Assembly (NCBI GenBank): GCA_963706445.1
Contig: OY970160.1
Span: 1,753,758 to 1,817,757, forward strand
Direction: 5' to 3'
Source of the DNA: an uncultured Nitrososphaerales archaeon
GTDB lineage: Archaea; Thermoproteota; Nitrososphaeria; Nitrososphaerales; Gagatemarchaeaceae
DNA: 64,000 bases
Below the pieces are notes generated by a model. The model was not told where the DNA came from. It did not search any database and saw only the letters and a list, made by a program, of their open reading frames with translations. The translations under genes and the position numbers were made by a program. Positions within the stretch are counted from its first letter, which is position 1; every line of letters starts with the position of its first letter. This document shows positions 25,971-29,326 of this stretch, piece after piece.

Positions 25971-27302
25971 CTACGATGTATTAGAAGCTTCGACGCATTG
26001 GATCCCCATCTGCGTCAGGGCCTCCAGTTGCTGGGCATCCCTCGATTCGCAGTAGACCCTGGTGATGGGCTCCGTTCCCGAAGGCCGGAACATCACCCAC
26101 GACCCATCTGTGAACACCAGCTTCAGCCCATCGAGGGTCCGCTCTTCGGCGATCTTGAGCTTCTTGAAGGACTCGCGGGCCCTGGCTGTCAGGGCGTCCA
26201 TCCTCACGGCGACCTTGAGGTTGGTCTGTCTGTACTTCCATTGGACCTCCTGCATGACCCGCCCGAGCACGCTGCGGTCGACCGACAGGAGGCTCGAGAC
26301 CAGGGCCGACGCGTTGATTCCATCTTCCCAGAGGCCCCACCCGGGATCTACCACCTTGCTCGGCTCGGAGGCGAACACTCCTCCCTCTGCCTCCAGCACT
26401 GCGAATGTCTTGCCGACCCGGCTCCTCTTGACGGCGAGTCCTAGCCTTTCGGCTTCCTCTGCTATGGCGCTCGAGGAGTTCTCCGAGACAACAGCCGTCC
26501 CCTCACTAAGCCCGAGCCCTTTGAGGGCGAGTATGGTGAGAATCGCATCCGGGACCACGTTCCCGAGGGGGCCCACCATCACCAATCTGTCGGCGTCCCC
26601 ATCGTGGGCGAGGCCGAAGTCCACCCCAAGGGTGGGCACCATCTTGGCGAAATCGGAGAGGTTGGTCGCTGTTGGCTCCGGGGGCCTGGCAGGGAAGCGC
26701 CAGGAGACCTGGGCGTTCACAGGTATCACCCGGTGCCCGAGCCGTCTGAGTATCTCAGGGGTCACCAACCCTCCCGGTCCGCTGGCGCAGTCCACAGCTA
26801 TGGCCAGAGGCTGGGCGGCTCTGGGGTAGCGGGCTACGACGGCCTGGACGTACTCGTCTATCACACCCTCGTCCGGGATCGCCTGGCCGAAGACTCCGGA
26901 CGGCTTCATCACGTCGACTCCCATGGCCCTCTCGATTCTTTCTTCATCCGCTTTGGGGAGCTCCATCCCATTGCGGTTGAACACCTTGACCCCGGAGAAT
27001 TCTGGAGGGTTGTGAGAAGCCGTGACGGAGAAACCCGCAATGCACCCCCTCGACCTCGTCCCGAAGGCAAGCACGGGAGTAGGCACCATGCCGAAGACGC
27101 TGGCGTCGCTCCCCACAGCGTTGATCGCCGAGACCACCGTCCTGGCGAGAAGCGCTGAGACCTTGCGTCCGTCCCACCCGACCCCGTACCGCCCCCTCCC
27201 CGACGCGAATGCAATCGTCTCGACCAATTTGTAGACCTGCTCGGGGGTCTGGGTCAGGTTGAAGACTCCTCTTACCCCAGCGGTACCGAAGGCTTTGACC
27301 AA
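25971..27302 (-). CDS. Phosphohexomutase (phosphoglucomutase/phosphomannomutase/GlmM family)
   Basis: FGTAGVRG, TASHNP, DGDADR, RPSGTEP. Confidence 0.93.
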   Translation of the reverse strand: MVKAFGTAGVRGVFNLTQTPEQVYKLVETIAFASGRGRYGVGWDGRKVSALLARTVVSAINAVGSDASVFGMVPTPVLAFGTRSRGCIAGFSVTASHNPPEFSGVKVFNRNGMELPKADEERIERAMGVDVMKPSGVFGQAIPDEGVIDEYVQAVVARYPRAAQPLAIAVDCASGPGGLVTPEILRRLGHRVIPVNAQVSWRFPARPPEPTATNLSDFAKMVPTLGVDFGLAHDGDADRLVMVGPLGNVVPDAILTILALKGLGLSEGTAVVSENSSSAIAEEAERLGLAVKRSRVGKTFAVLEAEGGVFASEPSKVVDPGWGLWEDGINASALVSSLLSVDRSVLGRVMQEVQWKYRQTNLKVAVRMDALTARARESFKKLKIAEERTLDGLKLVFTDGSWVMFRPSGTEPITRVYCESRDAQQLEALTQMGIQCVEASNTS

Positions 27303-27305
27303 GCG

Positions 27306-27836
27306 TTATCTCTCTATGATTTTGGTCCAGAGCTCGGGCGTGGCTTCCTGGGCCAGAAGGTGAAGCGTGGTAGCTAGCTCTCTGATTTCCCATTGGGCCT
27401 GGAGGGCAGTCCTCTGCCAGACCAGGTGCATGAGGCTCCTTGCGTTCAGGGTCATCACTAGCTTCGTCTTGATCGCGCTCGGGAGGATGTACCTTGCGTC
27501 CTCCTTGGGGACCCCTGCCGCGACCATCTTCTCGTAGGCCGCGTACACCATCTTGAGGGCCTCGTCGTAGGCCTTGTAGGCCGCCTCGTTTGTTTTGATG
27601 CTCGAGGGCATGACGACCCCCTCCTTGGTGGCCGCTGAGAACCGCTGCGACTCTTGGTCGTACGACACCGCCCTGTGTCTCACCAACTGGTGCGTGGTGA
27701 CCCTGCTGCAATCCTCAATCTCGAACATGTAGTTGACGTGATCCATCATGGCCTCCGGGTCGAACTGGACCCCTTCCCTGGCCAGCACCGACTTGATGGC
27801 GCCGAGATCAGTGTGATAGAGGAGCTTAACTCGCAT
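27306..27836 (-). CDS. thyX: FAD-dependent thymidylate synthase ThyX with shortened N-terminus
   Basis: SR...HQLVRHR..SYDQESQR, EDARYILP, NARSL, AQWEIR; ATG at 27836. Confidence 0.92.
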   Translation of the reverse strand: MRVKLLYHTDLGAIKSVLAREGVQFDPEAMMDHVNYMFEIEDCSRVTTHQLVRHRAVSYDQESQRFSAATKEGVVMPSSIKTNEAAYKAYDEALKMVYAAYEKMVAAGVPKEDARYILPSAIKTKLVMTLNARSLMHLVWQRTALQAQWEIRELATTLHLLAQEATPELWTKIIER

Positions 27837-28269
27837 TGACCCTCTCTCCGAAAGCAAGCTCGCTGAAGATTGGACAGACGGCCCTGCCTTCAAGCTCGTT
27901 CACGACCATCCCTGCAAACGACCTGCCCCTGGAATCCCTCCAGAGCTCCACAAGGGTCCTGGCGTTCATGGTCACCAGCCAGTCCGCCTCCTTGAGGCGG
28001 GTCACGCGCAGGTAGGGGAAGTTCCGGACGAGCCCGCTTACTTCCGCCTCCCCCGCCCCCTCGACCAGCAGGGTCAGAGTGAAGTGCTCGAGGACGTCGA
28101 GGGACTTGTCCTGCATGGCCTTCGTCAGCAGGTACCTCCAGTACTCGGCTCCCTTCTGCTCCAGCTCCGCCTCGATTTCCTCGATTGGCTTGGTGCTGTA
28201 GCACCTCCTCATGGCGACGGCGATGGTGCGCTCCGGGTTCGGACTGGTCCAGACCAGTATGACTTTCAT
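27826..28269 (-). CDS. Degenerate ThyX paralog lacking the RHR motif
   Basis: MKVILVWTSPNPERTIAVAMRRCYS, SLDVLEH, TMNARTL; overlaps the thyX start by 11 nt. Confidence 0.75.
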   Translation of the reverse strand: MKVILVWTSPNPERTIAVAMRRCYSTKPIEEIEAELEQKGAEYWRYLLTKAMQDKSLDVLEHFTLTLLVEGAGEAEVSGLVRNFPYLRVTRLKEADWLVTMNARTLVELWRDSRGRSFAGMVVNELEGRAVCPIFSELAFGERVNAS

Positions 28270-28328
28270 CCTGTCTTTGCTTCCTGACAGCGCATTCGAT
28301 TTAAACGTGGGCTCCGAAAAGCCGGGTC

Positions 28329-29196: not shown

Positions 29197-29326
29197 GCCG
29201 GGGTGGCAGAGTGGTTAATGCGCGGGCAACCCGCCAGGTTGCGAAGCGGGTCCGCAACTCGAGATCAAAGACCAGTCAGCCCGTGACCTTCGGGTCGCGT
29301 GGGTTCGAATCCTACCCCCGGCGCCA
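29197..29326 (+). tRNA. tRNA-Ser(CGA), two introns (31/32: 29228-29257; 37/38: 29264-29277), encoded CCA
   Basis: Acceptor GCCGGGG/CCCCGGC, G73, long variable arm, anticodon CGA at 29260-29262, BHB-type motifs. Confidence 0.88.

Follow-up and report, generated by a model that had tools for sequence, protein, structure and literature searches.

How does an archaeon make thymidylate when its only matches to flavin-dependent thymidylate synthase (ThyX), an essential enzyme and drug target, are two short overlapping genes, each lacking parts that the other retains? The two genes, here called P1 and P2, lie in the window, i.e. the whole stretch of 64,000 nucleotides that was analysed, and from this sequence alone a duplication had been proposed that led by subfunctionalisation to a heteromeric enzyme or, alternatively, to a catalytic plus regulatory pair. 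The heteromeric proposal is supported computationally: the genes are inherited together with a conserved overlap and are under purifying selection, they are the only such enzyme of the genome, their active-site roles are reciprocal, fused relatives exist and a heterodimer is predicted. We consider it probable that both proteins are subunits of a single flavin-dependent thymidylate synthase, assembled as an obligate P1-P2 heterotetramer in which two active sites are complete.

The host is an uncultured member of the Nitrososphaerales, a soil and peat archaeon, with a genome of one contig of 1.82 Mb that is rated 95% complete. P1 and P2 account for all Thy1 matches of this genome, no match to ThyA (PF00303) was found in its 1.82 Mb, and the pair is its sole thymidylate synthase. 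Judged from its motifs and the lack of any other Thy1 or ThyA match, the pair would synthesize dTMP from dUMP using FAD, NADPH and CH2H4folate.

Table 1. Features in and around the thyX pair, in window coordinates.
Feature	Positions	Strand	Description
P1	27826-28269	-	147 aa, start MKVILVW; non-catalytic ThyX paralog
P2	27306-27836	-	176 aa, start MRVKLLY; catalytic ThyX paralog
P1/P2 overlap ATGCGAGTTAA	27826-27836	-	11 nt, including the P1 stop, with the P2 start
Shine-Dalgarno-like purine-rich stretch GGAGAGAGGG	27840-27849	-	3 nt 5' of the P2 ATG, within the end of P1
Archaeal TATA-like box GTTTAAATCGAAT	28294-28306	-	about 30 nt 5' of the P1 ATG
P1 region covered by metatranscriptome contigs	27959-28265
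Phosphoglucomutase/phosphomannomutase-family gene	25971-27302	-	begins 3 nt past the P2 stop
tRNA-like sequence	29197-29323	+	127-nt match to the Rfam tRNA model, 42 bits; not called by ARAGORN

Reciprocal losses in P1 and P2

Both proteins pass the gathering score of the Pfam family Thy1 (PF02511; 24.8 bits), P1 with residues 5-75 aligned to profile positions 2-69 (35.1 bits) and P2 with residues 27-168 aligned to positions 50-191 (161.9 bits). Only P2 of the pair exceeds the cut-off of the equivalog model TIGR02170 (133.2 bits; cut-off 87.9), and P1, scoring 28.2 bits, should therefore not be named thymidylate synthase by itself. P1-type genes are currently labelled either 'FAD-dependent thymidylate synthase' or 'hypothetical protein', and neither annotation is right.

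P1 retains strand β1, helices α1/α2 (AVAMRRCYS), the KSLDVLEH loop and the NAR strand (TMNAR) and is devoid of RHR, the S..S.R dUMP loop, the helical insertion and an equivalent of R174. More precisely, a variable R-N-F stands in place of RHR and the S..S.R loop is deleted, and, aligned with the single-gene ThyX of sister families, P1 corresponds to a canonical ThyX lacking a stretch of about 63 residues (RHR to ARxxL) and roughly 10 others. In the same alignment P2 is a canonical ThyX minus 18 and 11 residues (about 29), the missing parts being helices α1/α2, which are kept in every canonical ThyX compared. P2 retains R53-H54-R55, S58..S63-x-R65-F66, R115 (ARYILP), R133 (NAR), R142 and AQWEIRE, and its ThyX signature RHRxxSxxxxSxR, reading R53-H54-R55-A-V-S58-Y-D-Q-E-S63-Q-R65, is invariant in 18 orthologs. 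The P2 loop of residues 27-31 and N131 vary among these orthologs; R133 is present in 17 of the 18, and D32-H33 are also kept. All motifs named by the sequence-only reading could be read in the translations, for P1 (AVAMRRCYS, SLDVLEH and TMNAR kept; RHR, S..S.R and the insertion lost) as well as for P2 (RHR..SYDQESQRF, ARYILP, LNARS and AQWEIR kept; the A.R.CY segment lost).

Do both proteins still have the ThyX fold? An AlphaFold2 (AF2) model of P1 based on 49 sequences reached a pLDDT of 92.4, and its residues 1-146 superimpose on residues 9-219 of T. maritima ThyX with a Z-score of 14.4 and an rmsd of 2.4 Å over 131 aligned residues. ThyX structures occupy all top ranks of the structure comparison (1o26/8reo), the next unrelated fold following at Z 5.4. 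P1 is thus predicted with high confidence to have the whole α/β core of ThyX with its own four strands. For the C-terminal third of P1 homology to ThyX is weak by sequence and rests on this structure model: of the C-terminal part only LVTMNARTLVELW, the NAR motif, matches the HMM of single-gene ThyX (about 2 bits), a search of PDB sequences with the P1 profile found no ThyX match, and hhalign of P1 orthologs against P2 orthologs gave a probability of 3.9%, both alignments being shallow. The AF2 model of P2 alone (18 sequences) was all-helical with a pLDDT of 52.6 and was discarded. Its sequence matches ThyX chains in the PDB (E 5e-15) and within the complex run described below its pLDDT is 87-88, and on these grounds P2 can be taken to have the ThyX fold.

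A proposed shared active site and the predicted P1-P2 complex

How could two such proteins constitute one enzyme? The active site of ThyX is built from three subunits (PMC6514825, section 3.1). From subunit A come RHR and Arg199 (M. tuberculosis, Mtb)/Arg174 (T. maritima, Tm), which serve FAD and dUMP. Subunit B serves the FAD phosphates with two residues, Ser71 (Mtb)/Thr55 (Tm) in the H.S..EH loop and Arg190 (Mtb)/Arg165 (Tm) in the NAR motif, and subunit C contributes the S..S.RY loop, which serves dUMP (PMC6514825). These residues were mapped onto P1 and P2 via alignments with T. maritima ThyX and the ThyX of sister families. The residues of roles A and C are invariant in P2 (R53-H54-R55, R142, S63, R65 and F66, plus R115). 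The role-B equivalents D58 and R104 are invariant in the 18 orthologs of P1, in addition to N102, E61 and H62; an aspartate is also found at position 58 in the canonical ThyX of sister family f7. P1 furthermore retains α1/α2 and has no role-A or role-C residue at all.

The consequences can be derived from the description of the roles in the review (PMC6514825) and from symmetry reasoning. In a tetramer of 222 symmetry the sites, written in the order of the three roles, would be (A,B,C), (B,A,D), (C,D,A) and (D,C,B), and only an arrangement in which A and C are P2 and B and D are P1 would complete any of them, namely two. The losses in each protein would then be the parts serving the two dead sites, which would explain the reciprocal pattern. 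It is probable that a ThyX gene was first duplicated in tandem, that P2 then kept roles A and C and shed the role-B elements, and that P1 kept role B alone, together with helices α1/α2 leading into its loop, and shed everything else. The resulting 222-symmetric tetramer would have two P2 on one diagonal and two P1 on the other and two of the usual four sites complete. One promoter and translational coupling of the two genes would suit a 1:1 ratio. Accordingly worded for the cell, P1 and P2 would bind each other in a 2:2 stoichiometry with two live sites, and P2 alone would be insufficient; the sequence pattern argues against a homotetramer as the working form. The invariant residues of P1 belong to the FAD site and do not form a new surface, which makes a catalytic plus regulatory pair less likely.

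Direct contact between the two proteins is also predicted. Complex prediction of P1 and P2 with an alignment as input for each yielded ipSAE values of 0.89, 0.88 and 0.89, the best of three controls reaching 0.00; 58 of 80 solved complexes attain the mark for this score, against 2 of 110 mismatched pairs. At least 96% of the contacts agree between runs, and the partner pLDDT is at least 89. In the confidently predicted heterodimer the subunits meet sheet to sheet in an interface that includes P1 residues 58-62 and 100-102, and helix α1 of P1 (residues 15-29) lies against the dUMP loop of P2 (residues 58-70). Since ThyX homotetramers are solved, the score may reflect likeness to these structures, and a prediction for one P1 and one P2 does not discriminate between 2:2 and 4:0 complexes.

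Could P2 be sufficient by itself? P2 might be a minimal homotetrameric ThyX, with P1 as an accessory protein, such as a stabiliser, regulator or assembly factor, or with P1 serving an unrelated linked function. P2 does pass the TIGR02170 cut-off alone and keeps all motifs that bind dUMP and the FAD phosphates, and as R133 and D32-H33 are among them, a P2 homotetramer with weaker FAD contacts could form; moreover, P1-like genes occur without an adjacent thyX in the Thermovibrio-like contigs described below. This explanation is nevertheless unlikely in our view: the invariant residues of P1 are those that a ThyX subunit lends to the FAD site of its neighbour, the matching loop of P2 is free to vary, α1/α2 are missing from P2, and in relatives both modules are fused in one chain. 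Still less probable is a split gene acting in cis-like fashion, in which the N-terminal helices of P1 insert into P2 to make one protomer, four such units form an octamer-like assembly and the rest of P1 is a vestigial scaffold. The complementary stretches of the Pfam profile covered by P1 and P2 do resemble two pieces of one gene, and α1 of P1 touches the dUMP loop of P2 in the predicted complex. However, P1 is predicted to be a compact and complete ThyX core, its predicted pairing with P2 is that of ThyX subunits, and its strand plus NAR motif is conserved, with W97, N102, R104, T105 and L106 invariant, unlike what would be expected of a vestige.

If P1 and P2 are the subunits of one enzyme, this natural two-subunit ThyX singles out those parts of a subunit that are required in trans alone and predicts two sites instead of four. 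With the roles placed on separate genes it would also offer a simple system for the mutational dissection of a shared site.

The locus and its conservation

The two genes occupy different frames of the minus strand and are thus two open reading frames, not a fused two-domain ThyX. Their overlap, given as 11 nt by the sequence-only reading, holds when checked on the sequence, and the arrangement of P1 stop and P2 start implies translational coupling. Judged from its position, GGAGAGAGGG could act as a Shine-Dalgarno-like element for P2; a related GG[AT]G-rich stretch is found at the matching position in orthologous loci. The TTTAAA core of the TATA-like box is present in all 18 loci compared (the window and 17 relatives), and the complete 13-mer is exact in nine of them and has one to three differences in eight more, L016 alone departing from it. 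No comparable element was found between P1 and P2 in these 18 loci, and GTTTAAATCGAAT is likely the single promoter of the pair, one that would likely yield a leaderless mRNA or one with a very short leader. A scan for sigma-70 promoters and terminators returned nothing, the sigma-70 model being inapplicable to archaea. As a weak sign of expression, three metatranscriptome contigs from peat (three runs of one study, 177-307 nt) are 100% identical to P1; they cover 27959-28265 only, and none falls on P2.

Downstream on the same strand, the phosphoglucomutase/phosphomannomutase-family gene may be co-transcribed with the thyX pair. On the other side, the tRNA-like sequence is probably an intron-containing archaeal tRNA; several related loci conserve it in the vicinity of their thyX pair.

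Checked for co-occurrence in related genomes, as the sequence-only reading had suggested, the P1/P2 pair was intact in all 17 that were fetched, which represent four genera of the family, and 16 of them share the identical 11-nt overlap RTGCGNGTTAR; L016 has a 4-nt gap instead. The two-gene form is also found in a second order of the class (L063-L066). Orthologs are 51-79% identical for P1 and 68-89% for P2, with a median dN/dS of 0.14 and 0.087, respectively. Within P1 dN/dS is 0.08 for codons 1-63 and 0.34 for codons 64-96, and within P2 it is 0.25 for codons 1-31 and 0.065 for codons 32-176. Both genes are under purifying selection, and their relaxed stretches are complementary. Homologs of P1 with similar length number 564 in metagenomes. 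P1 is 78% identical to its counterpart in the related metagenome-assembled genome (MAG) SubAcS15-57, which has been placed in the Gagatemarchaeaceae (Group I.1c, GTDB f_UBA183); the paper on Gagatemarchaeaceae genomes makes no mention of thymidylate synthase (PMC10640624). Genome annotation should credit members of the Group I.1c Thaumarchaeota, and soil archaea related to them, with a ThyX encoded by two genes.

Two short overlapping frames may at first suggest that P1 is a pseudogene in decay, or that an assembly error or a frameshift has broken up a single thyX. This is so improbable that we reject it: the reading frames stay open and keep their length across 18 genomes, the overlap is conserved, dN/dS of P1 is low, homologs of like length abound in metagenomes and a frameshift cannot account for DNA that encodes about 320 residues, some 115 more than the 204-205-residue single-gene ThyX of sister families. 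The earlier claim of a duplication and not a frameshift is equally borne out by the AF2 model, in which P1 comprises a whole ThyX core.

Five genomes with the window's genus code (G015, G102, G110, G123 and G002; 88-94% complete) contained neither a Thy1 nor a ThyA match. In the first four of them the best match to the window's phosphoglucomutase-family gene is only 33-34% identical. Either the locus is unassembled in the Thy1-less genomes or thymidylate is made or obtained in another way. The tally of Thy1 among genomes includes G127, which is unpublished and has a canonical single-gene ThyX; none of the specific claims made here depends on it.

Fused relatives, origins and known forms of ThyX

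Are there relatives in which the two modules are physically joined? Exhaustive searching with a profile, together with a genome search across the class, revealed fused proteins of about 330-420 residues with a P1-like N-terminal and a P2-like C-terminal half (P0133, P0134, P0137, P0155 and L067-L074) in other families of the Nitrososphaeria. A word-based search for longer P1 homologs had found none, which marks a limit of its sensitivity since the exhaustive search found the fused forms. Each half shows the losses of the corresponding P1 or P2, and the fused relatives support binding between P1 and P2 independently of the complex prediction.

In a tree built from 148 columns of the catalytic module, the split forms from the two orders group in a single clade (99/99), with the canonical f7 type as its sister (91/84). 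The f21/f23 fusions constitute another clade (99/98), and the f25 fusions fall among a different canonical type (SQQSQRH) across a branch supported by 100/99. A single clade of all P2-like modules, a group defined by architecture and chosen after inspection of the tree, was rejected by the AU test (p 0.0003); split forms together with the f21/f23 fusions were not rejected (p 0.15). The N-modules resemble the N-termini of their own canonical relatives. Taken together, tree placement, AU rejection and the likeness of the N-modules indicate that the partition into P1 and P2 arose at least twice. Within one lineage, either two genes have fused or one gene has split. It is conceivable that a canonical gene was restored by recombination between P1 and P2, and such reversion would blur the count of origins. 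The occurrence of the pair beyond the window's lineage, the existence of a fused form and the apparent repetition of the partition add to what had been read from the window itself.

A wider statement may tentatively be made as a serious possibility: that ThyX in these archaea is an obligate α2β2 enzyme with two complete sites in which one paralog is a pure trans-acting donor to the cofactor site, and that this partition evolved independently at least twice in the Nitrososphaeria, as two genes and as fusions. If true, this would suggest a predisposition of the ThyX tetramer to lose half of its sites, for instance because the canonical enzyme shows half-of-the-sites reactivity. The pair would also be a clean case in which reciprocal degeneration after duplication has turned a homomer irreversibly into a heteromer, and this seems to have happened repeatedly.

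P1-like stand-alone paralogs of 133-134 residues are also encoded on metagenome contigs of Thermovibrio-like bacteria (L079:2001-2405, L083:1995-2396), in a cluster that includes WP_456341791.1 of Thermovibrio sp. They have the architecture of P1, with no RHR and no insertion and with the NLR strand kept. No thyX lies beside these genes, whose neighbours encode a DedA-like membrane protein and cysteine synthase. Judged from this neighbourhood, a P1-like protein does not necessarily depend on a partner encoded next to it, and a partner of the Thermovibrio-like protein, if any, would be encoded elsewhere in the genome. An intein-like insertion appears to interrupt the ThyX signature region of two further metagenomic proteins, P0144 (489 residues) and P0156 (405 residues). 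That of P0144, which apart from this is a P1-like/P2-like fusion, lies between SYDQE and SQRFS with flanks C... and ...GN, and that of P0156 follows RHR with flanks C... and ...HN.

How does the pair compare with known forms of ThyX? ThyX has been described as a homotetramer only (PMC5954106, PMC6514825); duplicated ThyX has been noted in Chloroflexi and is uncharacterised (PMC3224940), and among open papers and preprints we found no description of a heteromeric, two-gene, paralogous or two-domain ThyX enzyme. The canonical enzyme (T. maritima TM0449, PDB 1O26; M. tuberculosis ThyX, 2AF6/3GWC; PF02511, TIGR02170) has the fold common to P1 and P2 and the full signature found in P2, its three-subunit site logic is borrowed here to explain the pair, and its subunits make contact sheet to sheet as in the predicted P1-P2 complex. 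In contrast to its four identical subunits, the pair provides two unlike ones, P1 without RHR, dUMP loop and helical insertion and P2 without α1/α2, and no more than two of the four sites could be complete.

Closest to both genes is the single-gene ThyX of 204-205 residues in sister families of the Nitrososphaerales (L021, L022, L035-L045), the N-terminus of which is 57% identical to residues 1-83 of P1 and the rest 45-49% identical to P2; it is one complete gene with no second copy, whereas there are two here. The fused ThyX has the same two modules as P1/P2, in the same order and with the same losses per module, but on one polypeptide instead of two, and at least the f25 type stems from a different canonical ThyX lineage. 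Ammonia-oxidising Nitrososphaerales (L026-L030) have a tandem two-domain ThyX of about 520-580 residues that is likewise duplicated, with part of the signature lost from each copy, and that would act as a pseudo-heterotetramer. Its partition differs from that of P1 and P2: the N-domain keeps S..S.RY, with RHR changed to DRR or HTH, the C-domain keeps RHR and the equivalent of R174 and is without S..S.R, the insertion is present in both domains, and the sequences are very divergent.
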